DNA of 42,592 nucleotides from Solirubrobacteraceae bacterium. GTDB taxonomy: Bacteria; Actinomycetota; Thermoleophilia; Solirubrobacterales; Solirubrobacteraceae. The stretch covers positions 1 to 42,592 of the forward strand of contig DASWQM010000196.1 in the NCBI GenBank assembly GCA_036403675.1, written 5' to 3'. Shown here piece after piece: positions 8,954-22,974 of this stretch. The position numbers and the translations under genes were made by a program. Positions within the stretch are counted from its first letter, which is position 1. Every line of letters begins with the position of its first letter. The notes below the pieces were generated by a model that saw nothing but the letters and a program-made list of their open reading frames with translations, did not search any database and was not told the DNA's origin.

Positions 8954-9795
8954 GCGCAGCACGGACAGGAGGCGTGGTGGGCCGACCGGCTGAAGCGGCG
9001 CTCCAGCTCGCGCGGGTGGAACTCCGCGCGCCGCACGCCCAGGCGGTCGACCGAGCGCACGACCGCGAGCTCCTCGGCGCGGGGCGGTGCGACGGCCCGC
9101 AGGTCGCGGGCGACGTCGAGCTCGAAGCCGGTGGCGGCCAGCACGTGGTCGAGCTGGACGTCGGGGAACAGCTCGCGCAGCCGCAGGCGCCCGTCGGGGA
9201 AGTCGAAGACGCCGAGCTCGGTCACCATCGCGCCCGGGCCGCCGCCCGCCAGGCCGAGCTCCTTGCGCGTGCCCAGCGACGTCCGGTGGCCGAGATCGGT
9301 GATGAAGTCGCAGTCCGCGACGAGGGCCCGGCCGGAACGGTGGCGGGTCGTCCACAGCGTCAGCTCGCGGACGGTCGCCGAGAGGTTGCAGCCGCCGCCG
9401 CCGCCGCCGAGCTTGACCCGCGGCCGCGGCAGCCCCCCGACGGCGGTGACGTTCGTGTTGCCGTGGGGGTCGATCTGCGCGCCCGACAGGAACATCCGGT
9501 CAAGCTGGCCGCGCGCGGCCAGGTCGAAGAGCTCCTCGAAGCGCAGGATGTGGTCGGCGCCGCGCAGCAGCGCCCAGTCGTTGGACGTCGCCGGGATGAA
9601 CGCCGGCTCGGGGTCGAGCGCGTACGTCGATCCCTCGACGAGGACCATGTGCGGCGCGTGCGTGCGCTTGGCGACGTACATCGCCACCTGGGCGCACGGG
9701 CTGCCGAAGCCGTGGAAGACGATCTCGCCGTCGCGGATCGTGCGTGCGAGCGCGATGCAGAACCACTCGTCGATCGTGAACTCGACCGGCGTCAT
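8950..9795 (-). CDS. Family I CoA-transferase, subunit B (glutaconate/3-oxoadipate CoA-transferase beta-like)
   Basis: ATG at 9795, 281 aa: MTPVEFTIDEWFCIALARTI...MFLSGAQIDPHGNTNVT...GGGGGGCNL, which is typical of beta subunits. Confidence 0.8.
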   Translation of the reverse strand: MTPVEFTIDEWFCIALARTIRDGEIVFHGFGSPCAQVAMYVAKRTHAPHMVLVEGSTYALDPEPAFIPATSNDWALLRGADHILRFEELFDLAARGQLDRMFLSGAQIDPHGNTNVTAVGGLPRPRVKLGGGGGGCNLSATVRELTLWTTRHRSGRALVADCDFITDLGHRTSLGTRKELGLAGGGPGAMVTELGVFDFPDGRLRLRELFPDVQLDHVLAATGFELDVARDLRAVAPPRAEELAVVRSVDRLGVRRAEFHPRELERRFSRSAHHASCPCCA

Positions 9796-9850
9796 CGCGA
9801 GGACCGACCTCGCGAGTCGACGGGAGCGACGGTCGGGCGATGGCGCGCTG

Positions 9851-10774
9851 TCATGCCGACGCGAGCTCCATCCAGCGCTCGGTGGAGTCCTTCCACTCGC
9901 ACAGCCCCCGCAGGCGCTCGTCGCCGACGGCATCCAGGTACGCCGCCTCGCCGTCGCCGGTCACGTAGCGCGCGAGGTAGTCGCTGACGCCGTCGTCGCT
10001 GCCGGCGGCATCGACCCATTCGCGCAGATGCGCCCGGTCGTAGGCGTACTGCGGATAGCACGAGGTCGGGTGGGCGCCGAGCGGCGCCTCGACGACGGCG
10101 TCGACGAGGAACGACGGCAGCACGATGCCGGCCTCGGCGACCTCGTCGGCGGGCGCCAGCCGCTCGACGGTGACGATGAGCTGGCGGCTCGCGTGCGCGA
10201 AGCGCTCGTCGAGCACGAACGGGCGGCGCAGGTGGACGTTGCCGCGCCGGTCGGCGCTGAGGCCGTGGATGAGCGCGACGTCCGGCGCCAGGGCCGGCAC
10301 GGCGACGAGCCGCTGGCCCGTGAAGGGGCATGTGATCTCGCCGTACTCGGGGTGCAGCGCGAGGATCCCGGTGCCCGCGACGCCGCGCACCGGCATGAAC
10401 GGCAACCCGTACTCGGCCGCGCGCAGCTGCTGCAGCAGCGTGTAGCAGCAGGTCTCCCGGACCGCGATCAAGCCCAGCTCGGCGGCGCGGCGGTACGCGG
10501 GCGCCAGCCCGAGATCCTGCTCGAAGCCGACATAGCTCTGCTCGACCGCAGCCACCGCGCCGGCCCCGACGAGCAGGTCGACGTCGATCCCGTGGGCCGA
10601 GCCCACGAGGCGCAGGTCGCGGCGTTCCTGCCGGACGAGCTCCCGTACGAGCGCCATCGGCTCGCGGTAGGAGAGCGCGCCCCCGAGCGCGACGGTGTCG
10701 CCGTCGCGCACGAGCGCGATCGCATCGGCCAGGGTGCGCCGCTTGTCGGGCAGCATCCGCGCGCGCATCATCAC
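9851..10774 (-). CDS. Family I CoA-transferase, subunit A
   Basis: 307 aa, with ...LADAIALVRDGDTVALGG... and the rest of the alpha-subunit layout. Candidate starts GTG 10774, ATG 10771 and ATG 10768 overlap the upstream TGA (10771-10773). Confidence 0.8.
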   Translation of the reverse strand: MMMRARMLPDKRRTLADAIALVRDGDTVALGGALSYREPMALVRELVRQERRDLRLVGSAHGIDVDLLVGAGAVAAVEQSYVGFEQDLGLAPAYRRAAELGLIAVRETCCYTLLQQLRAAEYGLPFMPVRGVAGTGILALHPEYGEITCPFTGQRLVAVPALAPDVALIHGLSADRRGNVHLRRPFVLDERFAHASRQLIVTVERLAPADEVAEAGIVLPSFLVDAVVEAPLGAHPTSCYPQYAYDRAHLREWVDAAGSDDGVSDYLARYVTGDGEAAYLDAVGDERLRGLCEWKDSTERWMELASA

Positions 10775-11541
10775 TGCGCCGTCATGCCGCCGTCGGCGGC
10801 GTGGATCGAGCCGGTCAGGAAGGCGGCGTCGTCGCTGACGAGAAAGAGGGCGACGCGGGCGATCTCCTCAGGCGCCCCGAGTCGCCCGATCGGGTACTTC
10901 TCGACCGTCATCGCGATCCCGCGGTCGAGGTCGCCGTTGCCGCGCTCGGTGATCATCGTCTCCATCAGCGGTGTGAGCACCGTTCCCGGGCAGACGCAGT
11001 TGACGCGGATGCCGCGCGGTGCGAGGTCGAGCGCCATCGCGCGCGTCAGCGACACGACCGCGCCCTTGGCGGCGCAGTAGGCCGCGAAGCGGCGGATGCC
11101 GACCAGCGCCGCGACGGAGCCCTGGTTGACGATCGCGCCGCCGCCGTTGCGCTCCATCTCGGCGACGGCGTACTTCGAGCACAGCCACGTGCCCTTGACG
11201 TTGACGTCGAAGCAGCGGTCCCAGTCCTCCGCGCTGACGTCGACGACGTCCCCCGTGGCGTCCACGCCCGCGTTGTTGTAGAGCACGTCGAGCCGTCCCC
11301 AGGCGTCGACGGGCGCGCCGACGATCGCCCGCGCGCCGTCGTCGGAGCCGACGTCGCCGACGACGGCAAGCGCCTCGCCGCCGGACTGCGCGATCTCGTC
11401 GGCGACCTGCTCGGCGGCCTCCGCGCGCACGTCGGCGACGGCCACGCGGGCGCCCTCGGCCGCAAACAGCCGCGCCGCCGCGGCACCGATCCCCGAGCCG
11501 GCCCCGGTCACGATCGCCACTCTTCCGTCGAGGCGCCCCAC
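10771..11541 (-). CDS. Short-chain dehydrogenase/reductase (SDR)
   Basis: TGAGSGIG cofactor motif, NNAG, and catalytic YCAAK. I prefer the GTG at 11541 (VGRLDGRVAIVTGAG), which lies 10 nt after the upstream stop. The ATG at 11631 would overlap the upstream gene by 80 nt. Confidence 0.8.
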   Translation of the reverse strand: MGRLDGRVAIVTGAGSGIGAAAARLFAAEGARVAVADVRAEAAEQVADEIAQSGGEALAVVGDVGSDDGARAIVGAPVDAWGRLDVLYNNAGVDATGDVVDVSAEDWDRCFDVNVKGTWLCSKYAVAEMERNGGGAIVNQGSVAALVGIRRFAAYCAAKGAVVSLTRAMALDLAPRGIRVNCVCPGTVLTPLMETMITERGNGDLDRGIAMTVEKYPIGRLGAPEEIARVALFLVSDDAAFLTGSIHAADGGMTAQ

Positions 11542-11551
11542 GGCTCGGACG

Positions 11552-13123
11552 CTAGTTCGGTCCCGCCGCGCCGTGATGGGCTGCGGGAGACAAAGATCCG
11601 TCCGGACCTTGTCCGCCGTTGCCGACGACACGGGCGCGGGCGCGCTCCAGCAGCGCCTCCTCCGCCCTCGCCAGCGCCTCGCGCCGCTGCGCGACGGAGG
11701 CCGCGAGGCCCGCCGCCCCAGCGCGGTCGGCGTCGAGCATCGCCTCCATCGGAGCCTCGGCCGCCCCGCCGGTGACGGTCCGCGTGGCGATCGCGGCGCG
11801 CGGGTTCAGCGCATCGGCGATGAGCGCGGGCGAGATCGTCAGCGACCGCCCGAGCACTTCCTGCGCGGCGCCGTCGAGCGCCTGCGCGTCGAGCGCCGCC
11901 GGTCCCGCGCCGCGCTCGATCGCGACGGCGACGGCACGCCCGACGACGCGGTAGCAGGCGCGGTAGTCCAGGCCGCTCGCCAGCATGACGGCGTCGGCGA
12001 GGTCCGCGGCGCCGGCAAAGCCCTCGTACAGCGGCCGCGCGAGCGCCGGCACGTCGAGCTCGAGGTGCTCGACGACGGCCGCCGCGAGGCTCACGGCGCC
12101 GGCCGCGAGCGTCACGGACTCGGCGCAGTCGCGGTAGGCGTAGAGCAGGTTGTCGGTGCGACCCGACGGCGTGCGCTGCGTCGCGGCCAGGCCGGCGGCG
12201 CGCCCGATGAGCGTGCCGGCGGCGCCGCGGACGACCGCCAGCGCGTACGGGTTGCGCTTCTGCGGCATGAGCGCGCTGGCGCGGCAGTGCTCGGCGGCGA
12301 GGCGGATGAAGCCGAACTGCTCGCTGGCGTAGATCTCGAGGTCCTCGGCCAGGCGGCTGGCGGTCGTCGCCGCCAGCGCGGCGTGGGAGACGAGTTCGAC
12401 GAGGCCGTCCGCCTGCCACATCGCGTCGCGCGTGTGGGTGATGACCGCGTCGAAGCCGAGGTCGCGCGCGAGAGCCCGGCGGTCGACGGGGACGCGCGAG
12501 CCGTTGACGCCGCCGGCGCCCGCGGGGCTCGCGTTGACCCAGTCGAAGTCGCGCCGCAGCCGCTCGCCGTCGCGCAGCGCGGGCGCGGCGAACGACAGCA
12601 GCCAGTGGCCGGCGGTCGTCGGCTGCGCGACCTGCAAATAGGTGAAGTCGGGCATCAGCGTCCCGACGTGACGCGCGGCCTGCTCGACGAGCGCCGCTGC
12701 GAGCCGCGCGACCGCCTCCTCGAGGTCCAGCACGAGCGCCCGCAGGCCGATCCGGAAGGCGATCCGCCCAGCCTCCCGCCGCGGCCTGCCGGCCGCCAGC
12801 CAGCCGCCGGCCGCGCCGATGCGCTGCTCGAGCCAGCGCTCGCGCAGGTTGTAGAGGTCGCCGTAGCGGGCGTCGGCGAGCGTCGCCGGATCGCGTTCGC
12901 GCAGGTCCAGCAGCGCGGCCAGCAGAACCTGCTCCTGGTCGGCGGGAACCACCCCGTGCTCGCCGAGTGACAGGACGTGCGCGATGTCGGCCAGGTCCAT
13001 GCCGGCGGCCAGCAGCTCGCTGTCGGCCAGCTCGCGCTGGTAGCCGGCGGCAACGAGCTCGGGCGCGGGGCCGGCGCCGATCCGCCCGGTCGCGCCGAGG
13101 TAGCCCTCGGGCAGCTCGCTCAC
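11552..13123 (-). CDS. Aspartase/fumarase-superfamily lyase, argininosuccinate-lyase-like (candidate XcbC/XcbD-type CoM biosynthesis enzyme)
   Basis: The GTG at 13123 overlaps the upstream stop (GTGA). 523 aa, with the superfamily signature SALMPQKRNP. The 959-aa track ORF is an artefact. Confidence 0.8.
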   Translation of the reverse strand: MSELPEGYLGATGRIGAGPAPELVAAGYQRELADSELLAAGMDLADIAHVLSLGEHGVVPADQEQVLLAALLDLRERDPATLADARYGDLYNLRERWLEQRIGAAGGWLAAGRPRREAGRIAFRIGLRALVLDLEEAVARLAAALVEQAARHVGTLMPDFTYLQVAQPTTAGHWLLSFAAPALRDGERLRRDFDWVNASPAGAGGVNGSRVPVDRRALARDLGFDAVITHTRDAMWQADGLVELVSHAALAATTASRLAEDLEIYASEQFGFIRLAAEHCRASALMPQKRNPYALAVVRGAAGTLIGRAAGLAATQRTPSGRTDNLLYAYRDCAESVTLAAGAVSLAAAVVEHLELDVPALARPLYEGFAGAADLADAVMLASGLDYRACYRVVGRAVAVAIERGAGPAALDAQALDGAAQEVLGRSLTISPALIADALNPRAAIATRTVTGGAAEAPMEAMLDADRAGAAGLAASVAQRREALARAEEALLERARARVVGNGGQGPDGSLSPAAHHGAAGPN

Positions 13124-14466
13124 GGCACGCCGCCCTCCGAGAGCACGCGGTCGACGAGCGCGATCGCCGGGCTCGCCGCCGTGACCGGGTCCAGCAGCCG
13201 GTCGAGCTCCTCCGCCGTCAGCGCGGCGGCGATCGCCGGCTCGGCCGTCAGCGCCTCGCGCAGCGTGCGGCCTTCGGCCTGGCCGCGCATCGAGGCGGCG
13301 TAGACGAGCTCGTGCGCGGTGTGCTTCCCGAGGCGGTCGGTCAGCGCGCGCATGACCGGCTCGGACTGCACCCAGCCACCCTGCGCGGCGACGTTGGCCG
13401 CCATCCGCTCGGCGTCGACCTCCAGGCCCTCGACGAGGTCGATCCCGAAGTGCAGCGCGGCGGCGGTCGCCACGCAGGCCTCGGGCAGGTAGGCCCACTC
13501 GGCCTTCCAAGCGGCGCCGTCGCGCTCGTGCTCGTGGACGACCCCCTCCAGCGCGAGCCCCGCGGCGCCGCGGACGACGCGCCAGAGCGTGCCGAGATGC
13601 TCGGACAGCTCGGGGTTGCGCTTGTGCGGCATCGTGATCGAGCCGACGAGCCCGCTGCGCGTGGCCTCGGCGAGCTCGCCGATCTCCGGTCGCTGCAGCT
13701 GGTAGACCTCGCGCCCGATCTTCGCCAGCGTCCCCGTGACGAGCGCCAGCAGGGTGAGGAACTCCGCGACCCGGTCGCGCGCCGTCAGCCACGTGACGTC
13801 GGGCGCCGCCAGCCCGAGGCGCTCGCACATCCTCCCCTGCAGCTCGAGCCCCGCGTCGCCCCAGAACGAGCACGTGCCGACGGCGCCCGCGAGCTGGCCG
13901 ACGGCCAGCCGCGGGCGGGCCTGGGCGACGCGCTCGCGATGGCGGCGCACCTCGGCGACCCAGACCGCAGCCTTGAAGCCGAACGTCACCGGCAGCCCCG
14001 GCTGCCCGTGCGTGCGGCCCAGCACGACGGTCGTGCGGTGCTCGCGCGCGAGCACCAGCAGCGCCCGCTCCAGGCGCTGCAGGTCGGTGGCCGTGTCGTC
14101 CAGGACGTCGCGCATGACGATGCCGGTCCAGCTGTCGGTGACATCCTGAACCGTCGCGCCCCAGTAGACCCACTCGCGGGCCGCGGGCGACAGGCGCGCC
14201 TGCCACGCGCGGATGAGCCCGAGCGTCGAGTGGCCGCTCGCGCGCGTGCCGGCGGCGACCTCCGCGAGGTCGAAGCCGTCCACGTCGGCGGTCGCCACGA
14301 TCTCCTCCGCGGCCGCCCGCGGCACGAGGCCGAGGTCGGCCTGCGCGGCGGCGAGCGCCGCCAGGACGTCGAGCCAGGCCTGCAGGCGGCCGCGCTCGCC
14401 GAAGCGCTCGCGCGCCGCGGGCGTGCTCCACAGGTGCTCGTAGACCACCGAGTCGATGATGTGCAT
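13120..14466 (-). CDS. Aspartase/fumarase-superfamily lyase, adenylosuccinate-lyase / carboxymuconate-cycloisomerase-like (candidate XcbC/XcbD-type)
   Basis: ATG at 14466 (MHIIDSVVYEHLW), 448 aa, with the signature GSITMPHKRNP. Confidence 0.8.
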   Translation of the reverse strand: MHIIDSVVYEHLWSTPAARERFGERGRLQAWLDVLAALAAAQADLGLVPRAAAEEIVATADVDGFDLAEVAAGTRASGHSTLGLIRAWQARLSPAAREWVYWGATVQDVTDSWTGIVMRDVLDDTATDLQRLERALLVLAREHRTTVVLGRTHGQPGLPVTFGFKAAVWVAEVRRHRERVAQARPRLAVGQLAGAVGTCSFWGDAGLELQGRMCERLGLAAPDVTWLTARDRVAEFLTLLALVTGTLAKIGREVYQLQRPEIGELAEATRSGLVGSITMPHKRNPELSEHLGTLWRVVRGAAGLALEGVVHEHERDGAAWKAEWAYLPEACVATAAALHFGIDLVEGLEVDAERMAANVAAQGGWVQSEPVMRALTDRLGKHTAHELVYAASMRGQAEGRTLREALTAEPAIAAALTAEELDRLLDPVTAASPAIALVDRVLSEGGVP

Positions 14467-14471
14467 GGCGC

Positions 14472-15365
14472 TCACGACGTCGGCACCGGCGTCCAGGCCG
14501 GGACGAGGAGGTGCAGCGCCTCGCGGACCTCCTCGAGCGTCGCGCCCCACGGCACGACCACGAGCGCGCCGTCGGACTCGATGCCGCGCTCGCGCAGGCA
14601 GCACTTCACGAGCGTCGGCTCCGTGCGCTCGTCCGCGCGCACGCGCGGGCACAGCTCCACCCGGGCCGCGGGCTCGGCGCCGTACAGCTCGCTGTGGATC
14701 TGGCGCGAGCGCTCGCAGCCGAGCAGCGTCCAGCCACCGTCCGGTGGCTCGGCCGGGCCGGAATCAAGGAAGTCGACCGGGCCGGCGAGCTCGAGCCCGC
14801 CGCAGCGGCAGGGCAGCAGCCAGTGCTCGGTCGCGACCTCCGCCGCGATCTCGTTGAGGTCGATCGCCTCCAGCTCGAGCGCGACCGGGTCGAGGTCCTC
14901 GTCGTACTCGAGCACGCGCCGGGCCATGTCGAGCAGCTTCGGCGGCGCGGGCGGGACGACCTCGACGACACGGATCCGGACCGGCGCCGGCTCGACGATG
15001 AGGTTGACGTGCTGGTTGCGCCCCTCGACGACGTAGACGCGCGCCGCCTGACCGCTGGCCGCTGCCGCGCGTGCCATCTGCGTGGCGTTGCCCGTGTCGA
15101 TCTGCGGGTCGCGCACGAACGCGGTCTCCTCGGGCCCCGAGACCCAGTGGATCTCGCTGACGGGCCAGAACAGGGCGTCGCCGGCGGGCTCCTTGTCGAC
15201 CGTCACGACCGCATGGCCCTCGTCGCCCTCGGCGATCAGCACCTCCGTGCGCCGGTATACGCGCCGGTTGACGAGGTGCTCGCGAACGGCGTCCTCGGTC
15301 AGCGCCACGCCGAGGCGCTGCACGCTCACGCCGCGGTACGGCCGGCAGATCCAGTTCGGGCGCAT
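14472..15365 (-). CDS. Hypothetical protein with a Cys-rich C-terminal half; no family recognised
   Basis: 297 aa from the ATG at 15365, which shares its A with the upstream TGA. Third-position GC is high. The gene is embedded in the operon, with a 5-nt gap to the next start. Cys motifs are LLPCRCGG, LLGCERS, ELCPR and VKCCL. Confidence 0.65.
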   Translation of the reverse strand: MRPNWICRPYRGVSVQRLGVALTEDAVREHLVNRRVYRRTEVLIAEGDEGHAVVTVDKEPAGDALFWPVSEIHWVSGPEETAFVRDPQIDTGNATQMARAAAASGQAARVYVVEGRNQHVNLIVEPAPVRIRVVEVVPPAPPKLLDMARRVLEYDEDLDPVALELEAIDLNEIAAEVATEHWLLPCRCGGLELAGPVDFLDSGPAEPPDGGWTLLGCERSRQIHSELYGAEPAARVELCPRVRADERTEPTLVKCCLRERGIESDGALVVVPWGATLEEVREALHLLVPAWTPVPTS

Positions 15366-16090
15366 CACACCGCCGTCCAGGCGCCGTCGATGACGAGCAT
15401 CGCGCCGTTCATGTACGCCAGCCGGTCCCCGGCGAGCAGCGCGACGGCATCGGCGATCTCCTCGGCGACCGCGACGCGCCCGGCCGGGATCCGGGTGAGC
15501 ACGTCGGCGCGCAGCTGCGGGTCCTCGAGGCGCCAGCGCGTCATCGGCGTGTCGACGATCCCCGGGCAGATCGCGTTGGCGCGGATGCCTCGTGCGGCGT
15601 AGTCGGCCGCCAGCGAGCGCGTGAGCTGCACGACGCCGCCCTTGGACGCGGAGTAGGCGCAGCGGCCGGGGAAGGCGACGAGGCCTGCGGCGGATGCGAC
15701 GTTGACGATCGAGCCGCCGCCACGCGCGAGCATTCCCGGCAGCGCCGCGCGGCAGACGAGAAACGGGCCGGTGAGGTTGACCTCGAGGACGCGGCGCCAC
15801 TCGTCGACCGGCGTCACGTCGCACTCGGCGGCCGCCGGCGACCCCGTGATGCCGGCGACGTTGACGACGGCGTCGAGCGGGCCGAGCTCCGCCTCGGCCC
15901 GGCCGACCGCGCGCTCGACGGCGTCGGCGTCGGTGACGTCCGCCGTGAGCGCGAGCGCGTCGAGATCGCGCAGGCGCGCGCCGTCGAGGTCGAGCGCGGC
16001 CACTGCCGTGCCGCCGGCCAGCAGGCGCTCGACGCAGGCGCGCCCGATGCCCGACGCGGCTCCGGTGACGAACGCGACCGCCGGCGTCAC
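15365..16090 (-). CDS. SDR with the 2-(R)-hydroxypropyl-CoM dehydrogenase-like residue pattern
   Basis: 241 aa, GTG start at 16090. TGAASGIG cofactor motif. Ser lies at Tyr-13 and the catalytic motif is YSASK. Arg lies at Tyr-3 (GRCAY) and at Tyr+41 (TPMTRWR), the same spacing I recall for S142/R152/Y155/K159/R196 of Xanthobacter R-HPCDH. Confidence 0.75.
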   Translation of the reverse strand: MTPAVAFVTGAASGIGRACVERLLAGGTAVAALDLDGARLRDLDALALTADVTDADAVERAVGRAEAELGPLDAVVNVAGITGSPAAAECDVTPVDEWRRVLEVNLTGPFLVCRAALPGMLARGGGSIVNVASAAGLVAFPGRCAYSASKGGVVQLTRSLAADYAARGIRANAICPGIVDTPMTRWRLEDPQLRADVLTRIPAGRVAVAEEIADAVALLAGDRLAYMNGAMLVIDGAWTAV

Positions 16091-16093
16091 GCC

Positions 16094-17866
16094 CTACGTC
16101 TCCTGGAGCTCGAGCGTGCGCAGGATGCTGATCGCCAGCTGCGCCTCGAAGCGATCGCGCTGGCGTGCGAAGTCGAGCTTCGCGAGGCCCTGGACCTTGT
16201 CGAGCCGGTAGCGCACCGTCTTCGGATGCACGAACATCGCCGCCGCCGTGCGCTGGAGGTTGCAGTCGTTGGCGAGGAACGCCTCGATCGTGTGCGTCAG
16301 GTCGCTGGGATGGTCGCGGTCGTAGTCGAGCACCCCGCCGAGGACGCGGCGCGCGAACTCGCGCAGGTCGCCACGGTCGCCGGGGGCGAGCAGGAAGCGC
16401 ATGACGCCGAGCTCGTCGAGCACGGCGACGTGATGGCAGCCCACATCCGTCGGCGCCGCGTTGAGGGCGACCTGCGCCTGGGCGAGCGCCTCGGGCAGGT
16501 CGGCGATGTCGGCGGCGCACGCGCTCACCCCGGCCGCCACGTCGATCTCCGGGAAGCGCTCGCCGAGCCGGTCGACGACGGCCTCGACGCTGGCGCGCGG
16601 ATCGTCGGTGGCGGGCAGCAGCAGCGCGATGAGCGAGCCCCGCGCCGCCGCCAGCGCGGCCTCGCCGCCCTGCGCCGTCGCGGCCCGCTCGGCGACCTGG
16701 GCGAGCGACTCGCGCAGCGCCAGCTGCGGCAGCGCGCCATCGCTCGACGCGTGGCGCGGGCGCGCCTGCGCGCGGATGAGCGCCACCCGCACCTTCTCCG
16801 GCAGCTCGAGGCGCAGCGCGCGCGCCCAGACGAGCGCCTCGGCGACGTCGGCGATCTTGCCGTCGAGCAGGTCCCAGAGGAAGTCCCCGCGGACCCTCGT
16901 GCGAGCCTGTAGCACCGCGCGCTCGCGCGTGAGCTCCAGCGCGCACATGATCGTCGCCTGCTCGACGAGCACGACGTCGAGCGGCACGGGCGGGTGGCGC
17001 AGCGCGACGCCGAGGTAGCCGAGCCGCTCGCCCCCGGCGAAGACGTCGCGGACGAGCAGGCGGTCGTCGGCGACGGGCCGGGGCGCCGCGATGCGCGCCG
17101 CCATCCGCGACTGGAGCGCCAGCCCCGCGGCACCGCTGGCGGCCATCACGCGGCAGCCGGTGTCGAGCGTCGCGACGTCGGCATCCAGCAGCCGCGCGAC
17201 GCCGTCGACGAGATCGGTGAGCGCGACGTCCTCCAGCACGAGCCGCATGAGCTCGTCGTGGACCTCGGTGGCGCGCTGCAGGACCTCGTTCTGCGTCTCG
17301 AGCCGCTGGTTGACGATCTGCAGGCCGTCGACGGTGCGGCGCTGCGCCTCGTAGAGCCGCGCGTTCTCGACGGCGATCGCGGCGAGGTTGGCGAGCGTCG
17401 TCATCGCCTGCACGTCGGCGGCGACGTAGGCGTCGGGCTGTCGCCGCCAGCTCATCGCCACGCCGATCGCGCGGCCGCGCACGGCCATCGGCGCGCCGAG
17501 CGCCGCCCGCGTGCCGTCGGCCTGCGCGATGTCCGCGAAGTCGCGCGAGATCCGCTGGTCGGACTGGTAGTCGTCGACGCGCACCGGGCGCCCCTCCTCG
17601 AAGACCTTGCCGGCGACGCCCTGCCCGCGGCCGACGACGAGGCGCGCCGTCCCGACGGTGCGATGTCCCGTGCAGGCCTGCATCCGCAGCGTCTCGCCGG
17701 TCTCGTCGGCGAGCAGGATGCCGGCGATGTCGGCGTTCGTCGTCGCGACGACGGCGTTGAGGACCGACAGCAGCGTGGTGTCGAGCTCGAGCGAGCTGAG
17801 GATGTCGGCGGCGACGCGCCCGAAGGCGCCGAGGCGTCCGGCCTCCAGGGTTGCGACGGGACCCAT
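16094..17866 (-). CDS. GAF-domain / PucR-family transcriptional regulator
   Basis: 590 aa. The N-terminal region is GAF-like (LLSVLNAVVATTNADIAGILLADETGETLRMQA...GVAGKV). The C-terminal PucR helix-turn-helix (HTH) is NLQRTAAAMFVHPKTVRYRLDKV. The stop lies 3 nt before the next gene's start. Confidence 0.85.
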   Translation of the reverse strand: MGPVATLEAGRLGAFGRVAADILSSLELDTTLLSVLNAVVATTNADIAGILLADETGETLRMQACTGHRTVGTARLVVGRGQGVAGKVFEEGRPVRVDDYQSDQRISRDFADIAQADGTRAALGAPMAVRGRAIGVAMSWRRQPDAYVAADVQAMTTLANLAAIAVENARLYEAQRRTVDGLQIVNQRLETQNEVLQRATEVHDELMRLVLEDVALTDLVDGVARLLDADVATLDTGCRVMAASGAAGLALQSRMAARIAAPRPVADDRLLVRDVFAGGERLGYLGVALRHPPVPLDVVLVEQATIMCALELTRERAVLQARTRVRGDFLWDLLDGKIADVAEALVWARALRLELPEKVRVALIRAQARPRHASSDGALPQLALRESLAQVAERAATAQGGEAALAAARGSLIALLLPATDDPRASVEAVVDRLGERFPEIDVAAGVSACAADIADLPEALAQAQVALNAAPTDVGCHHVAVLDELGVMRFLLAPGDRGDLREFARRVLGGVLDYDRDHPSDLTHTIEAFLANDCNLQRTAAAMFVHPKTVRYRLDKVQGLAKLDFARQRDRFEAQLAISILRTLELQET

Positions 17867-17921
17867 GTGCGGACTCTAGTCCCCTTGGGTTGCTCTCCGA
17901 AAGACAATCGAGCAGCGGGGC

Positions 17922-17939
17922 TTTGTCCGCGCGAGCAAA
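17922..17939. promoter_or_regulatory. Imperfect 18-nt palindrome TTTGTCCGCGCGAGCAAA in the divergent intergenic region
   Basis: 14 of 18 positions are self-complementary (TTTG..CGCGCG..CAAA). It sits in the lower-GC 130-nt gap between the PucR regulator gene and the 2-KPCC gene. Confidence 0.25.
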
Positions 17940-17996
17940 CGAGACGACCCTGTATCGCACGTACGCTGGCGACACCACAGCCACGAGGAGGACGAC

Positions 17997-19547
17997 ATTC
18001 CCGAGCTTGACGTCGTCGGCTGGCGGTCCGCCATCGAGGATGCGCTGGGCCGTCCCGGCGCAGCCCCGATCCTCAACCTCGACGACGACGGCCGGGGGCC
18101 GTACGACGCGATCTTCGTCGGCGGCGGCGCCGCCGGGCGCTTCGGCGGCTCCTACCTGCGGGCGATGGGCGGGCGCGCGCTGATCGTCGACCGGTGGCCG
18201 TTCCTCGGCGGCAGCTGCCCGCATCAGGCGTGCGTGCCCCACCACCTCTTCTCCGAGGCGGCGGCTCTGCTCGACCGCGCGCGGTGGTTCTCCGGCGAGC
18301 TCTTCTTCCCCCCGTTCGACCCGGCGCGCGCGAGCATCCTGCAGCTCGTCGAGCTGTTCCGCGCCGGCCGCTCGACCGCGCACGCCTTCATGAACTGGCA
18401 GACCCAGGTCCAGCTCGAGGTCGAGTTCGTCCTCAACGCGGAGGCCGAGATCCTCGACGCCAACCGCGTGTCGGCGGCCGGCCGGACCTTCGAGGCCCGC
18501 AACCTCGTCATCGGGCTCGGCGCCTTCCAGAAGCCGCTGGAGATCCCGGGCGCCGACCTGCCCGGCGTGCACGACTGGGCGACGCTCGTCGAGGACCTCG
18601 ACTACGAGCCGACGCGCTGCGTGATCATCGGCGGCGGCAAGACGGCCGTCGAGTACGGCTCGTTCTTCCAATCGACCGGCTGCGCGACGACGATCGTCTC
18701 GCGCGCGCCGGTCATGCGGACGCGCAGCCTGCACCACGTCGACGAGGACATCCGCCGCTATGTCGTCGACGGCATGCGCGCCCGCGGCATGACGCTGCTC
18801 GAAGGCGCCCGCGTGATCGCGCTCGAGGGCGACGGCGTGGTCGAGCGTGCGCTCGTCAGCCATCCCGACGGCCGGGTGGAGGCGATCGAGTGCGACTTCG
18901 TCTTCAACTGCACCGGCGAGCGCGCCAACAGCGAGGCGGCCGTGCGCGCGCTCGGGCTGGCGACCGGTCCGGGCGGAGAGATCCTCGTCGACGACCGGAT
19001 GCGCACGAGCGTCGACGGCGTCTACGCCGCAGGCGACGTCATCGGATCGCCGATGGAGATGTTCAAGGCGCGCAAGTGCGGCATGACGGCGGCACGCAAC
19101 GTCATGGGCGAGGACTACACGTTCGACTTCAGCGAGTACCCCGACTTCCTCCACACGACCTACGAGGTCAGCTGGGTCGGGCTGAGCGAGGAGGAGGCGC
19201 GCGAGCGCCACGACGACATCGCGGTGATCCGCATGCCGCCCAAGGGGCAGGAGCGCGACAACCCGCTGCCCTGCGCCGAGGGGACGATGCTCTACGCCTT
19301 TGCCAAGCCGGAGCTCTCCGGCCTGCAGAAGTGCATCGTCGACTCCGGATCTCGGCGTATCATCGGTTTCCACCATGTCGGCTACGGGGCCAAGGACGCC
19401 TTCCAGTACCTCGACGCCCTCCTGCGCCGTCCCCAGGGGCTGACGATCGATGAGCTCGGGGAGATGAACGAGCTGTTCCTCAACCCGGAGCACTTCATCC
19501 AGCTCTCGCGCCTGCGGGCCGGACGGCGAGAGCTGGTGGATCTTTGA
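17997..19547 (+). CDS. xecC: 2-oxopropyl-CoM reductase (carboxylating), 2-KPCC-like flavoprotein disulfide oxidoreductase
   Basis: Motifs: YDAIFVGGGAAGRFGGSYLRAMGGRALIVDRWPFLGGSCPHQACVPHHLF, GGGKTAVEYG, PMEMFKARK, YPDFLHTTYEVSWVG, HHVGYGAKDAFQYL and the C-terminal ELFLNPEHFIQLSRLRAG. These closely follow my recollection of Xanthobacter 2-KPCC. The 5' end is uncertain. Homology extends upstream of the first ATG (18165), and there is no in-frame ATG, GTG or TTG after the stop at 17877. I propose the ATT at 17997, which follows GAGGAGGA. Confidence 0.85.
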   Translation: MPELDVVGWRSAIEDALGRPGAAPILNLDDDGRGPYDAIFVGGGAAGRFGGSYLRAMGGRALIVDRWPFLGGSCPHQACVPHHLFSEAAALLDRARWFSGELFFPPFDPARASILQLVELFRAGRSTAHAFMNWQTQVQLEVEFVLNAEAEILDANRVSAAGRTFEARNLVIGLGAFQKPLEIPGADLPGVHDWATLVEDLDYEPTRCVIIGGGKTAVEYGSFFQSTGCATTIVSRAPVMRTRSLHHVDEDIRRYVVDGMRARGMTLLEGARVIALEGDGVVERALVSHPDGRVEAIECDFVFNCTGERANSEAAVRALGLATGPGGEILVDDRMRTSVDGVYAAGDVIGSPMEMFKARKCGMTAARNVMGEDYTFDFSEYPDFLHTTYEVSWVGLSEEEARERHDDIAVIRMPPKGQERDNPLPCAEGTMLYAFAKPELSGLQKCIVDSGSRRIIGFHHVGYGAKDAFQYLDALLRRPQGLTIDELGEMNELFLNPEHFIQLSRLRAGRRELVDL

Positions 19548-20386
19548 GCTCCGACCACGCGCTCACCGGCGGGCAGATCGCCCGCTTCGCCATCAAGCGG
19601 CCCGGCGGCGCCACGCCGGGCTTCCTCGAGCTGCCCGACCGCACGGTCAAGCCGCGCGCCGCCGGCGTCACGCACGTGCTCGACAAGGGGCTGACGCTCG
19701 TGGAGCTCGACGGGCTGCTCGGCTCGGCCGGACCGCACATCGACTTCGTCAAGCTCGGCTGGGGCACGGCCTACGTCTCGGCCGACGTCTCGGCGAAGGT
19801 CGCCCACTGCGATCGCGCGAACGTCGGCGCGTGCCTCGGCGGCACGCTGCTGGAACTGGCCTGGGCGCAGGGGCGCATGGCGCAGTACGTGCACTGGGCG
19901 CACGGCATCGGCGTCTCCTGCGTCGAGGTCTCGAACGGCTCGGTCGGCATGTCCCCCGCCGAGAAGCGCCGGCTGATCCAGGAGCTCGCGGAGGAGTTCG
20001 AGGTCCTCGCCGAGGTCGGCTCCAAGCGGCCGGGACCGGTCGACGTGCGCAGCTGGTGCGACGAGCTGGCGCGCGACCTCGACGCCGGCGCGAGCTGGCT
20101 CGTCACCGAGGGACGCGAGAGCGGCACGGTCGGGCTGTTCGAGCCCAACGGAGACGTGCGCGTGGAGCTCGTGGACGCGATCGCCGCAGCCGTGCCGGTC
20201 GACCGGGTGATCTTCGAGGCGCCGCTGAAGGCGCAGCAGGCGGTCCTCATCCACCTCGTCGGCCCGAACGTCGGGCTCGGCAACATCGCTCCCGGGGAGG
20301 CGCTGTCGGTGGAGACGCTGCGGCGTGGCCTGCGAACCGACACGATCGACCTCGCGCTTCCCGAGCTCGACCGGCTGCCCGTCTAG
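19544..20386 (+). CDS. comA: (2R)-phospho-3-sulfolactate synthase (ComA / XcbB-like)
   Basis: 280 aa. The motifs HIDFVKLGWGTAYV, GGTLLE, VEVSNGS, EVGSK, DLDAGASWLVTEGRESG, IFEAPLKAQQ and VETLRRGLRTDT align with archaeal ComA. The TTG start overlaps the upstream TGA (TTGA). Confidence 0.9.
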   Translation: MSSDHALTGGQIARFAIKRPGGATPGFLELPDRTVKPRAAGVTHVLDKGLTLVELDGLLGSAGPHIDFVKLGWGTAYVSADVSAKVAHCDRANVGACLGGTLLELAWAQGRMAQYVHWAHGIGVSCVEVSNGSVGMSPAEKRRLIQELAEEFEVLAEVGSKRPGPVDVRSWCDELARDLDAGASWLVTEGRESGTVGLFEPNGDVRVELVDAIAAAVPVDRVIFEAPLKAQQAVLIHLVGPNVGLGNIAPGEALSVETLRRGLRTDTIDLALPELDRLPV

Positions 20387-20412
20387 GCGGGAGGCACACG
20401 GCAGCGAATCGC

Positions 20413-20436
20413 GCCGCCGCCGTGACGGCCGGCGGC
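20413..20436 (+). terminator. GC-rich bulged hairpin downstream of comA
   Basis: GCCGCCGCCG-TGA-CGGC(C)GGCGGC lies 27 nt after the comA stop, between convergent genes. There is no U-tract. Confidence 0.3.
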
Positions 20437-20463
20437 ACGATTCACACGTGCGCACGATTCACA
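20435..20463. repeat. Perfect 12-nt direct repeat GCACGATTCACA x2 (20435-20446 and 20452-20463)
   Basis: Read directly from the sequence. The repeat lies in a locally AT-richer patch of the convergent intergenic region. Confidence 0.9.
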
Positions 20464-20489
20464 GGTACCGGATGGCTACCGGGGTCAGC

Positions 20490-20948
20490 TCAGCTGCAAT
20501 TGTGCTGGCCGTGCTTGACCCTCTCCGGCGCTGCGAGCGGCGTCGGGGCGACCAGGACGTTGATCCCGAGGCAATCGCCGTCGTGGTAGTACTCGGTGGC
20601 GGCGATCGCAAAAGCTCCGGCCGAGGCAAGGATCGCGCCCCTACAGACGGTCTTCACGATCGGAAGGTCTACGGGGTCACACGCCGCTGAGGCGATACCG
20701 GTGACGATCCCCGTGACGGTCCCGGCGTTGCGAGTCGTGGCCCGGTTGAGCCGGATCGTGCAGTTGGGGGGCAGCAACCCACAGCTCGTGTCGAATGGCG
20801 CGCTGAGGATCACCGCCTGTGGCTCCGGCGCGTGGCCCGCGGCCTGCTGCCCAGCGCTTGCGGCGGCGGGCCCCCCCAGCATGAGCGGCAGCGCGACCGC
20901 CAGGGCGGCCGCCTTCCAAGACCTGCGTACCGTGTTGCGATCGAACAT
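20490..20948 (-). CDS. Small secreted Cys-containing protein (hypothetical)
   Basis: The ATG at 20948 is preceded by GAAGGAGG. 152 aa, with an RR-containing signal peptide MFDRNTVRRSWKAAALAVALPLMLGGPAAASA and 6 Cys in the mature part. Confidence 0.6.
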   Translation of the reverse strand: MFDRNTVRRSWKAAALAVALPLMLGGPAAASAGQQAAGHAPEPQAVILSAPFDTSCGLLPPNCTIRLNRATTRNAGTVTGIVTGIASAACDPVDLPIVKTVCRGAILASAGAFAIAATEYYHDGDCLGINVLVAPTPLAAPERVKHGQHNCS

Positions 20949-21077
20949 CCGAACCTCCTTCGGGTGGATTTTGTTTCCCCGCACACCACAAGGCGGGGGT
21001 TCACCAAAGGACCCTCAGACTTTTCGACGACCCGCCGGAACCGGGCTACGCCGGCGAGGGCGCCGGCCCGTGACGCG
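20901..21077 (-). repeat. Copy 1 of a ~175-nt duplicated module (vestigial gene 3' end + leader + SD + first ~16 codons)
   Basis: It aligns by eye along its whole length with 22103-22278, with most positions identical. Shared blocks include CGGCGGGTCGTCGAAA, CCCCCGCC, GGTGTGCGGGG, CCCGAAGGAGG and ATGTTC. Confidence 0.8.
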
Positions 21078-21718: not shown

Positions 21719-22150
21719 TTACAGGAGGACCGTCATGTAGAGGGTCTCGCCGCTGTCGGGCGTCGAGGCCTGATCGCGCACGATCGCCGCCGTCTCTCCG
21801 GCACCGTACAGGGACGTGGAGCAGCTTCCGTTTCCGTACCCGATGGACGCCGTGGTGGCGTTGGTCATGCTCCTGATCTGACATGCCATGAAAGCACCGC
21901 TTCGGTTCGCTCCCTTCACGTAGAAGATCCTCCCGGTCTTCGTGAGGTTGCAGAGTTGCCAGGGCACCCCGCCAGGACAGGTGCGCGAGTAGCCGCGGCT
22001 CACCGCAGACGCCTGCGGGACGACCACGGTGAGCCCGAGCACCGCGGTGAGCACGCCGGCGGCGCAGATTCCCATCAGGCGGGTGGTGCGTGCCTGCATC
22101 GTCAAGGCGGCCGCCTTCAAGGACCTACGTACCGAACTGCGATTGAACAT
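21719..22150 (-). CDS. Small secreted protein (hypothetical), unrelated mature domain
   Basis: The ATG at 22150 is preceded by GAAGGAGG. 143 aa, with MFNRSSVRRSLKAAAL followed by a second signal-like segment MQARTTRLMGICAAGVLTAVLGLTVVVPQASA. There are 4 Cys in the mature part. Confidence 0.6.
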   Translation of the reverse strand: MFNRSSVRRSLKAAALTMQARTTRLMGICAAGVLTAVLGLTVVVPQASAVSRGYSRTCPGGVPWQLCNLTKTGRIFYVKGANRSGAFMACQIRSMTNATTASIGYGNGSCSTSLYGAGETAAIVRDQASTPDSGETLYMTVLL

Positions 22151-22278
22151 CGGACCTCCTTCGGGTTTGGGCTTTGTTCCCCCGCACACCAGAGGCGGGG
22201 GCCCACCGAAGGCCCCTCATGATTTCGACGACCCGCCGGATGGAGCTACGCCAGCGATGCCGCCAGCGCCGTGACCGC
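22103..22278 (-). repeat. Copy 2 of the duplicated leader/signal module
   Basis: See copy 1. Its upstream end is the genuine 3' end of the TauE-family gene (stop at 22246-22248). Confidence 0.8.
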
Positions 22279-22970
22279 GGTGACCGCCAGCACGGCGAGC
22301 ACCGCGCGCTCGTAACGCTCGCCGCGCAGGCGGCCGAACGCGCGCCGGCCGAGCAGCTGGCCGGCGAGACCGGCGAGCAGCAGCAGCCAGACCGCGTCTG
22401 GCAGCGCGAACGTTCCGGTCAGCACTAGCGCGGGCAGCCCGAGCACGGCGTGCACGAGGAAGATGGCGGCCAGCGTGTCGCGCATCTGCGCCGGCGACGC
22501 GCCGCGCGCGAGCAGGCAGAAGACGAGCGGCGGGCCGTTCAGCGACGTCGCAGTCGACAGCGCGCCGCCGGTGATCCCCGCCGCCGGAAGCTGCCACGCG
22601 CGCGGGCGTGCGGTCGCGGCCGTGCGCCGTCCCGGCACGCGCAGCGCCAGCCCGCCGAGCACCGCCACCGCGACGAGCCCCGACAGGGCCTGCTCGGACA
22701 GCTCGCGCAGCGCGAACGCGCCGATCGCCAGCCCCGGCAGCGACCACGCCAGCAGCGCCGACGCGTCGCCGCGGCGAACCTGCGGCCGGCGGCGCTCGCC
22801 CGCGAGCGTCACGACGTTCAGCGCCATCGCGACCAGCACGCCCGCCGTCACCGCCTCCCGCGGGCCGAGCAGCGCGAAGAGGATCGGAGCCGACACGAGC
22901 GCGAAGCCGAAGCCCGTCGCCGACTGCAGGGCGGCACCGGCCAAGAGCGCCAGCGCAGCGCCGGCGACCG

Positions 22971-22974
<4 letters not shown>
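22246..22974 (-). CDS. TauE/SafE-family (DUF81) membrane anion/sulfite-type exporter
   Basis: 242 aa and polytopic. The N-terminus LQSATGFGFALVSAPIL is typical of the family. The GTG start overlaps the gpmI stop (GTGA). Confidence 0.75.

Follow-up and report, generated by a model that had tools for sequence, protein, structure and literature searches.

2-Ketopropyl-CoM reductase/carboxylase (2-KPCC, EC 1.8.1.5) belongs to the disulfide oxidoreductase (DSOR) family, whose FAD and cysteine pair it shares, and is to our knowledge the only carboxylase known in that family. Other DSORs have a catalytic His-x4-Glu dyad where 2-KPCC has Phe-x4-His. The biochemistry of 2-KPCC comes mainly from one proteobacterium, Xanthobacter, and we know of no enzyme assay for its actinobacterial etn-type homologues. 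In the enzyme of Xanthobacter autotrophicus Py2 (Xa), we take Arg56 to bind the CoM sulfonate together with Arg365 and His137 to stabilize the enolate, with Met140 and Met361 flanking, alongside Gln509, and His84 lying inside the CxxxxC motif. Phe501 prevents protonation, an F501H variant yielding 90% acetone, and His506 and Arg365 form an anion/CO2 site (PMC8358701). For etn clusters, a reductase/carboxylase has been proposed that turns 2-ketoethyl-CoM into malonate semialdehyde (PMC8727900), and CoM-dependent epoxyethane clusters that lack an alkene monooxygenase are described in Methylohalobius crimeensis and other methanotrophs (PMC11507031).

We analyzed an open reading frame at nt 17997–19547 (+ strand) of a 42,592-nt stretch of DNA from a Solirubrobacteraceae-like actinobacterium, hereafter the window. 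Frame 1 contains 516 open codons and a stop, with a third-position GC of 0.92 in line with the coding genes of the window, and sequence comparison identifies the 516-aa product as a predicted 2-KPCC orthologue (NADPH:2-ketoalkyl-CoM oxidoreductase/carboxylase). The enzyme type is already known; its gene here lies within a full CoM epoxide-degradation cluster of a soil actinobacterium. The motifs listed in the initial annotation all recur on the + strand: the FAD motif GGGAAG (nt 18120–18137, aa 42–47), the redox-active CPHQAC (nt 18216–18233, aa 74–79), the NAD(P)H motif GGGKTAVEYG (nt 18630–18659, aa 212–221), and the Phe-His dyad in FLNPEH, exactly at nt 19476–19493 (aa 494–499). The blocks it had likened to the Xanthobacter enzyme, PMEMFKARK (nt 19050–19076) and HHVGYGAKDAFQYL (nt 19371–19412), are also present, as is the AIEDAL stretch (nt 18030–18047) of an N-terminal extension that aligns with Xa from residue 12 onward.

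The protein is 53% identical to Xa 2-KPCC over its full length, and the alignment to Xa residues 12–523 contains indels of just 1–4 residues. In the pairwise alignment, FLNPEH pairs with FLNPTH column for column and without gaps, placing F494 on Phe501 and H499 on His506, the equivalence on which the initial annotation had hinged. Likewise, C74-P-H76-Q-A-C79 aligns to Xa C82-P-H84-N-A-C87. The retained Xa residues comprise R56, F57, C82, H84, C87, H137, M140, M361, R365, F501, H506, and Q509, and the small-substrate pocket is preserved in all its residues. Conservation extends to relatives: FLNP[ED]H was found in 115 and CPHQAC in 117 of 120 homologues, and in alignment A1 F494 and R359 are invariant, with H499 found in at least 90%.

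A phmmer search of the PDB returned 2-KPCC (1MO9) as the best match, with an E-value of 2.3e-170 (residues 5–516 versus 12–523); the next family, MerA, followed at 1.8e-34. The AlphaFold model (pLDDT 87; 86–92 in the N-terminal helix) adopts a closed fold, as in 1MO9. Foldseek aligned this model to 1MO9/7MGO with a TM-score of 0.92–0.93 (0.93 for 1MO9), versus at most 0.78 for other DSORs (lipoamide, glutathione, and mercuric reductases). Pfam assigns Pyr_redox_2, Pyr_redox, and Pyr_redox_dim. The protein passed none of the NCBIfam models, all DSOR equivalogs lying far under cutoff (100–160 bits for DLD, MerA, and GR, versus cutoffs of 400–600); we therefore base the family call on the PDB matches and on the fold. 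No second class I disulfide reductase is encoded in the window, and the term "paralogue" used initially should be replaced by orthologue of 2-KPCC.

Genes on both sides belong to CoM metabolism. Downstream, a gene at 19544–20386 (+) encodes a phosphosulfolactate synthase, ComA/XcbB, the first step of CoM biosynthesis (PF02679 ComA, 252.8 bits), which is 53% identical to ComA of Nocardioides sp. JS614 and scores 230.9 bits against TIGR03849, short of that archaeal cutoff of 280. The gene starts with TTG and shares 4 nt with the 2-KPCC gene at the stop codon of the latter, and the two are probably translationally coupled; their adjacency recurs in related loci L081 and L089. Divergently transcribed from the 2-KPCC gene is a GAF/GGDEF-like/PucR-type HTH transcriptional regulator (16094–17866, −; Pfam GAF, GGDEF_2, HTH_30), whose gene is likewise placed in L082 and L089.

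The remaining genes also lie on the − strand. An SDR of the R-hydroxypropyl-CoM dehydrogenase (XecD) type (15365–16090) is 50% identical to Xa XecD and 57% identical to the JS614 SDR that follows the 2-KPCC homologue of that strain; it keeps the Ser-Tyr-Lys triad and XecD Arg152/Arg196. XcbA (14472–15368; NF052538 350.8 bits, cutoff 150; Pfam DUF7714 275 bits) is 44% identical to Xa XcbA, a [2Fe-2S] reductase that catalyzes the last step of bacterial CoM biosynthesis (PMC9457059). A 1673-aa open reading frame (14472–19493, −) running antisense over the 2-KPCC gene is a high-GC artefact, real only in its last 298 codons, which are XcbA. Then follow XcbD, a 3-sulfopropionylcysteine synthase of the aspartase/fumarase superfamily (13120–14466; NF052536 656.3 bits, cutoff 600), and an XcbC-like phosphosulfolactate phosphate-eliminating lyase (11552–13123), 54% identical to its JS614 counterpart and 40% to Xa XcbC, for which NF052535 is the best match at 471.3 bits, under its cutoff of 575.

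A second SDR (10771–11541) groups with Xa XecE (S-HPCDH, 48% identity) and JS614 SDR1 (62%). Next to it are the two subunits of a CoA transferase (8950–10771; A at 9851–10771, B at 8950–9795; PF01144 on both), each 67% identical to its counterpart in the JS614 etn cluster, and an NDP-forming acyl-CoA synthetase (6848–8953; Pfam CoA_binding_2, Succ_CoA_lig, ATP-grasp_5; 50% identity to JS614 ACS). The epoxyalkane:CoM transferase (EaCoMT; 5638–6774), an EtnE/XecA orthologue, is 75% identical to JS614 EtnE over its full length and 50% to Xa XecA, and keeps the Zn-ligand positions His218/Cys220/Cys341. The last gene encodes an NAD(P)-dependent aldehyde dehydrogenase (4208–5635; PF00171 463 bits), with lactaldehyde dehydrogenase and the sulfoacetaldehyde dehydrogenase SafD as best NCBIfam models, all under cutoff. 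It has the same position in L082 and sits where JS614 has etnABCD.

Within the window, the xcbA–E set is represented by XcbA and XcbD above NCBIfam cutoffs, XcbB/ComA above its Pfam cutoff, and XcbC as a best match under cutoff; the PLP enzyme XcbE was not found. Neither xcbE nor the alkene monooxygenase (JS614 EtnA–D) had a tblastn match in the 42.6-kb window at E up to 10, and xcbE may be located elsewhere in the genome. Megablast of 17000–21000 against plasmids gave a single 86-bp match, to pXAUT01, so the window is not a known alkene-degradation plasmid. As predicted from gene content, the locus is a chromosomal CoM-dependent epoxide pathway of the etn (ethene/vinyl-chloride) type, combined with the CoM biosynthesis genes xcbA–D.

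The 2-KPCC gene opens with a non-canonical codon, ATT (17997–17999). Close homologues have ATG at exactly the equivalent codon ("MPELDVVGWRS", 516 aa), a Shine-Dalgarno AGGAGG (17986–17991, +) precedes the ATT by 5 nt, and initiation at the ATG at 18165 would lose the FAD-binding motif. On these grounds we consider ATT 17997 the right start; the initial annotation had begun the gene at this codon. A GGAGG-type motif with comparable spacing is found in L001–L003 and L007, and a weaker one in L004. Because of the ATT, gene callers shorten the product to 460 aa, which costs it the FAD-binding motif, and an identical 460-aa product is labeled "dihydrolipoamide dehydrogenase" by JGI. The interval between the regulator and the 2-KPCC gene (17867–17996) is a putative divergent regulatory region. 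A palindrome search identified conserved half-sites, AAAGACAA (17900–17907) and TTTGTC (17922–17927), and a −10-like TACGCT is located at 17962–17967; blocks of this region are kept across six Solirubrobacteraceae-type loci. A scan of 17700–20700 for sigma-70 consensus promoters and intrinsic terminators found nothing, and searching the window for Rfam families and tRNAs gave no match.

It is highly probable that the ORF product is an ATT-initiated 2-KPCC orthologue (EC 1.8.1.5) that recycles CoM in the terminal step of an etn-type epoxide pathway encoded on the chromosome, and its conserved residues suggest that it fixes CO2. By analogy with the Xanthobacter enzyme, NADPH would reduce FAD, which in turn would reduce the Cys74–Cys79 disulfide. 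Cys74 would then attack the thioether sulfur of a 2-ketoalkyl-CoM supplied by the adjacent EaCoMT and SDR dehydrogenases. The released enolate, from which Phe494 would bar proton access, is expected to attack CO2 near His499/Arg359, generating a β-keto acid, and Cys79 would resolve the mixed disulfide to free CoM. Two substrates may be envisaged: 2-ketopropyl-CoM, giving acetoacetate, or 2-ketoethyl-CoM, giving malonate semialdehyde that the aldehyde dehydrogenase, CoA transferase, and acyl-CoA synthetase would process further. As the substrate, 2-ketoethyl-CoM is as likely as 2-ketopropyl-CoM or likelier, given the etn-type cluster layout and the closer relationship to homologues of ethene/vinyl-chloride degraders (63–65% identity).

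Three other explanations were weighed. A decaying or truncated gene, yielding just the 460-aa product from Met57 or no product, would account for the lack of any in-frame ATG, GTG, or TTG between the upstream stop (17877–17879) and the gene callers' start at 18165. It is nonetheless very unlikely: the protein sequence of the 56 codons upstream of 18165 is conserved and aligns to homologues, the ATT takes the place of the relatives' ATG behind an ideally spaced Shine-Dalgarno, a second contig that is 98.7% identical in DNA has the same ATT, the third-position GC is typical of coding genes in the window, and in the species of L001 just 5 codons separate the ATT from an in-frame stop on its 5′ side. 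Least credible of the three is an ordinary disulfide reductase, such as dihydrolipoamide dehydrogenase (E3) or a mercuric or glutathione reductase. The JGI name and the generic Pfam matches (Pyr_redox_2/Pyr_redox_dim) fit this assignment, but the DLD, MerA, and GR scores fall far below cutoff, Phe-His stands in for the catalytic His-Glu dyad, 2-KPCC is far ahead of other families in both PDB and fold searches, and the window contains no E1/E2 partner genes. Orthology to 2-KPCC at 53% identity, the fold, and the CoM-dependent epoxide and CoM biosynthesis context thus exclude a generic reductase, as the initial annotation had maintained.

The third explanation, which we regard as improbable, is an enzyme of the same family that cleaves the C–S bond without fixing CO2. 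Here the CoM thioether would be cut reductively and the carbanion protonated; a possible substrate is CoA-activated carboxymethyl-CoM, formed by the aldehyde dehydrogenase and the CoA transferase or acyl-CoA synthetase, which would give acetyl-CoA directly plus CoM. In this lineage, as in etn clusters, the gene is conserved together with genes for an aldehyde dehydrogenase, a CoA transferase, and an NDP-forming acyl-CoA synthetase; acetyl-CoA is the end point of published schemes, whose steps are unproven (PMC11507031, PMC8727900); and the clade has a Glu/Asp next to the dyad His that is absent from the characterized enzyme. Against protonation stand the invariance of the proton-excluding Phe494 in A1 and the retained His499/Arg359 anion/CO2 pocket. 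The model, moreover, predicts a closed, 1MO9-like fold around an unaltered small-substrate pocket, in which a CoA thioester would have no obvious fit. Carboxylation by a 2-KPCC orthologue hence remains our preferred reading.

Close orthologues are present in at least 80 species-level genomes, mainly of soil Actinomycetota and Chloroflexota, and EtnA/EtnC lie within 10 kb in only 5 of the 80 related genome loci. A broader proposal, which we put forward tentatively and rate as rather unlikely, is that a complete, chromosomal CoM epoxide-carboxylation module, syntenic in Solirubrobacteraceae and mostly unlinked to alkene monooxygenase, occurs widely among uncultured Actinomycetota, Chloroflexota, and Dormibacterota of soils, where it has an unrecognized role. 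If true, and if the hosts have no dedicated alkene monooxygenase, abundant soil bacteria might be using the module, with fixation of CO2, to scavenge or detoxify environmental or co-oxidation epoxides, or to process another electrophile; the ATT start, being conserved, would then also throttle translation of the carboxylase. A large actinobacterial clade, most of it uncultured, keeps the Phe-His dyad along with the entire substrate pocket; its members are routinely mislabeled dihydrolipoamide dehydrogenase, an annotation corrected here. With this locus, Solirubrobacteraceae-like soil bacteria would join the organisms that use and synthesize CoM. As a natural variant (Gln85, Glu505, SLHH insert), the protein may be useful for studying dyad control of carboxylation versus protonation, and it offers a handle on the etn-type carboxylation of 2-ketoethyl-CoM, a still-unproven step of ethene/vinyl-chloride degradation.

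Compared with Xanthobacter 2-KPCC (XecC, Xaut_5048; PDB 1MO9/2C3C/7MGO), the new protein has the same architecture, consisting of an N-terminal extension and FAD, NADPH, and dimerization domains. It differs in reading CPHQAC instead of CPHNAC (Asn85 to Gln) and FLNPEH instead of FLNPTH (Thr505 to Glu), which puts an acidic residue beside the dyad His, and in a 4-residue SLHH insert in an NAD(P)H-domain loop. The Xa gene likewise adjoins EaCoMT, SDR, and xcb genes, but on a megaplasmid, whereas the new locus is chromosomal, lacks a nearby alkene monooxygenase in the 42.6-kb window, uses an ATT start for 2-KPCC, and, like etn clusters, has the CoA transferase, acyl-CoA synthetase, and aldehyde dehydrogenase immediately upstream of its EaCoMT gene.

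The methanotroph clusters resemble the new locus in combining epoxide and CoM biosynthesis genes with a 2-KPCC-like "E3 component" and no dedicated monooxygenase nearby (PMC11507031). In those hosts pMMO supplies the epoxide by co-oxidation, whereas no monooxygenase of any kind was seen in the window of this Solirubrobacteraceae-like actinobacterium.

The homologues of Nocardioides sp. JS614 (pNOCA01, NOCA_RS00610) and Mycolicibacterium chubuense NBB4 (pMYCCH.01, MYCCH_RS26655) are 63% and 65% identical to the new protein, respectively. Their clusters are plasmid-borne, transposase-flanked, and linked to etnABCD, in contrast to the chromosomal locus, where no etnABCD was seen in the window. 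They encode an acylating-type aldehyde dehydrogenase and MEDS/CdaR regulators, where the new locus has a non-acylating enzyme and the GAF-PucR regulator. They also include xcbE, missing from the window, and a second, CoADR-like flavoprotein; in an alignment, JS614 FADox2 and L082 DSOR2 appear CoADR-like, without CxxxxC, and their His-Glu position is not readable. Despite these differences, both homologues share CPHQAC, FLNP(D/E)H, and the SLHH insert with the new protein, and both clusters display the same operon order, SDR-CoAT-CoAT-ACS-EtnE, together with xcbA/B/C/D homologues.

The open frame at nt 17997–19547 of the plus strand (frame 1) contains 516 codons followed by a stop. A phmmer search of its product against all PDB sequences returned 1MO9, the 2-ketopropyl-CoM reductase/carboxylase (2-KPCC) of Xanthobacter autotrophicus Py2 (Xa), with E = 2.3e-170 (residues 5–516 versus 12–523), followed by the mercuric reductase family at 1.8e-34. 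The protein shares 53% global identity with the Xa enzyme and 63% with the homologue encoded by pNOCA01 of Nocardioides sp. JS614; identity to the homologue of Mycolicibacterium chubuense NBB4 is 65%. An AlphaFold2 model calculated with 42 homologues as input (pLDDT 87, pTM 0.87) has a TM-score of 0.92–0.93 to 1MO9/7MGO, versus ≤0.78 to lipoamide, glutathione, and mercuric reductases. Alignment and predicted structure thus uphold the initial annotation, which had named the protein 2-KPCC from motifs. All of these motifs are found in the translation, including the redox motif CPHQAC (aa 74–79, nt 18216–18233), the FAD Rossmann motif GGGAAG (nt 18120–18137), the NAD(P)H motif GGGKTAVEYG (nt 18630–18659), and the blocks PMEMFKARK (nt 19050–19076) and HHVGYGAKDAFQYL (nt 19371–19412), all on the plus strand. 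FLNPEH lies exactly where it had been placed (nt 19476–19493) and aligns without gaps to FLNPTH of 2-KPCC, with Phe494 equivalent to Phe501 and His499 to His506.

The alignment reveals that Arg56, Phe57, Cys82, His84, Cys87, His137, Met140, Met361, Arg365, and Gln509 (Xa numbering) are kept. In the Xa enzyme, Phe501 shields the enolate from protons, an F501H variant yields 90% acetone, and His506 and Arg365 form the anion/CO2 site (PMC8358701). By homology, NADPH would reduce the Cys74–Cys79 disulfide through FAD, and Cys74 would attack the thioether sulfur of 2-ketoalkyl-CoM. The resulting enolate would attack CO2 near His499/Arg359, shielded by Phe494, and Cys79 would free CoM. Three differences from Xa 2-KPCC are common to the actinobacterial clade. 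Asn85 is replaced by Gln (117 of 120 homologues have CPHQAC), Thr505 by Glu (Glu or Asp in 115 of 120), and the loop that follows the second NAD(P)H-domain strand has four extra residues, SLHH (aa 244–247, nt about 18726–18737). Both histidines of this insert, which is also found in JS614 and the whole clade, are invariant, and it could affect pyridine-nucleotide binding.

Between an upstream TAG (17877–17879) and ATG 18165, the target frame has no ATG, GTG, or TTG, and for this reason a mechanical ORF list begins it only at 18165. Initiation at this ATG would delete the FAD-binding GGGAAG. Codon 17997 is ATT, with a well-placed AGGAGG upstream at 17986–17991. The closest homologues have 516 aa and start with 'MPELDVVGWRS' or 'MPDLDVVGWRS', where the target reads 'IPELDVVGWRS'. 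Among related loci of other genomes, the equivalent codon is ATG in L003, L004, and L089 and ATT in L001, L002, and L007. In L001 (ATT at 3272), an in-frame TAG precedes the ATT by only five codons, and no canonical start follows before codon 57; the ATT recurs (position 890) in L081, a separate metagenome contig whose DNA is 98.7% identical to the window. From these sequence features, we infer that translation begins at ATT 17997. The ATT in place of ATG leads gene callers to cut the protein to 460 aa without the FAD motif, so that the identical product (database entry P0002) is publicly called a 460-aa 'dihydrolipoamide dehydrogenase'. The ATT start may also throttle translation of the 2-KPCC gene. 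On the opposite strand, a 1673-aa ORF (14472–19493, minus) was rejected as a gene; it is an artefact of the 73% GC content, and only its last 298 codons, which encode XcbA, are real.

The start of the gene for ComA/XcbB, phosphosulfolactate synthase (19544–20386), overlaps the 2-KPCC stop codon. Eleven minus-strand genes with overlaps or very short spacers run divergently from 17866 down to 4208. They encode, in this order, a GAF/PucR regulator, an SDR (50% identity to Xa R-hydroxypropyl-CoM dehydrogenase, Arg152/Arg196 kept), XcbA (14472–15368; NF052538, 351 bits, cutoff 150), XcbD (656 bits, above the cutoff of 600), an XcbC-like lyase (best match 471 bits, short of the cutoff of 575), another SDR, the two CoA transferase subunits (A, then B), an acyl-CoA synthetase of the NDP-forming type, an epoxyalkane:CoM transferase (75% identity to JS614 EtnE, Zn ligands conserved), and a non-acylating aldehyde dehydrogenase (4208–5635; best matches lactaldehyde dehydrogenase and SafD, all below cutoff). 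XcbA is a [2Fe-2S] sulfoethanethioaldehyde reductase (PMC9457059); its Pfam entry is still DUF7714, 'unknown function'. XcbE, which serves a PLP-dependent, D-cysteine-desulfhydrase-like step, has no tblastn match at E up to 10 in the window, which does contain xcbA, B, C, and D. It lies within 10 kb at about 33 of 83 related loci, and in this lineage it may be encoded elsewhere in the genome or its step done differently.

Blocks at 17900–17939 and 17960–17967 of the divergent promoter region are conserved across six related species. They comprise half-sites of the form AAAGACAA...TTTGTC, the palindrome TTTGTCCGCGCGAGCAAA, and the element CGTACGCT, which is similar to an actinobacterial -10 (TAnnnT); judged by sequence, they are a candidate operator of the GAF-PucR regulator. 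Between ComA and the glycolytic genes, two small Cys-containing proteins (20490–20984 and 21719–22216, both minus) have similar, apparently signal-like N-termini and no Pfam match above threshold. A TauE/SafE-family membrane protein of the sulfite exporter type (22246–22974, minus), whose proposed GTG start (22972–22974) abuts the gpmI stop codon, ends the gap-pgk-tpi-gpmI string 1.9 kb from ComA, a sulfite consumer; this adjacency is not kept in L089.

The cluster belongs to the etn type, and the substrate would arise from epoxide and CoM via EtnE, followed by SDR oxidation. For this type, a route from 2-ketoethyl-CoM through malonate semialdehyde, malonate, and malonyl-CoA to acetyl-CoA has been proposed, with aldehyde dehydrogenase and CoA transferase among the enzymes and all steps unproven (PMC8727900, PMC11507031). 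The '2-ketopropyl' of the initial reading is therefore a possible but not established substrate; in other respects that reading is supported. A thioether reductase that does not carboxylate, acting for example on CoA-activated carboxymethyl-CoM, would be compatible with the additional Glu498 and with the conservation of genes for CoA handling. This reading is disfavoured because Phe494 is invariant, His499 is retained, and the small-substrate pocket is unchanged. The dyad, the gene context, and the scores rule out a generic E3, MerA, or glutathione reductase, an option that the initial annotation had also dismissed. All NCBIfam equivalog models for MerA and for lipoamide, glutathione, and mycothione reductases or dehydrogenases of this family (lipoamide dehydrogenase, glutathione reductase, mycothione reductase) give 100–160 bits against cutoffs of 400–650. 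Decay of the gene is likewise excluded, since the 56 N-terminal codons are conserved and the ATT recurs. The protein is an orthologue of a known, structurally characterised enzyme inside a known kind of gene cluster, and its closest relatives, the homologues from ethene/vinyl-chloride degraders, are uncharacterised.

At E ≤ 1e-50, the target has more than 1000 matches among database proteins, the closest (84–89% identity) from Solirubrobacteraceae MAGs. In a collection with one genome per species, relatives occur in 354 stretches. The best 80 of these, each at least 61% identical to the target, belong to Solirubrobacterales, Pseudonocardiaceae, Kribbella, Actinomycetospora, Mycobacterium, Chloroflexota, and Dormibacterota. 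Within 10 kb of these 80 genes, xcb genes and SDRs are common, at roughly 35–50 loci (the number varies with the gene), whereas EtnE-like genes occur at about half and EtnA/EtnC at only five. Synteny with the window is preserved in L082 and L089. L089 also encodes an acyl-CoA synthetase fused to a Pyr_redox_2 flavoprotein (1–913, 1211 aa), and in L082 the 2-KPCC gene adjoins a second MetE-like gene and an E1ab/E2 set resembling acetoin dehydrogenase (11631–15916). In L009–L015, the neighbouring MetE-like genes share only 28–42% identity with EtnE and may represent different CoM transferases.

The novelty is modest and resides in the Solirubrobacteraceae-like, chromosomal host lineage, the lack of xcbE and of a linked monooxygenase in the window, the ATT start with its systematic mis-annotation, and how broadly the clade is represented in soil genomes. 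The JS614-type order SDR-CoAT-CoAT-ACS-EtnE is kept, but EtnE is followed by etnABCD in JS614 and by the aldehyde dehydrogenase here, and EtnA-D homologues are found nowhere in the window. The 'ALDH' adjoining the 2-KPCC gene in JS614 and NBB4, possibly an acylating-type enzyme, gave no tblastn match to this aldehyde dehydrogenase. Methanotrophs provide a precedent for clusters without a monooxygenase, interpreted as epoxide detoxification systems (PMC11507031). The Xanthobacter, JS614, and NBB4 clusters are plasmid-borne, whereas the locus described here is flanked by housekeeping genes (FtsH, gap-pgk-tpi-gpmI, UvrC), with no transposase seen, and is therefore chromosomal.
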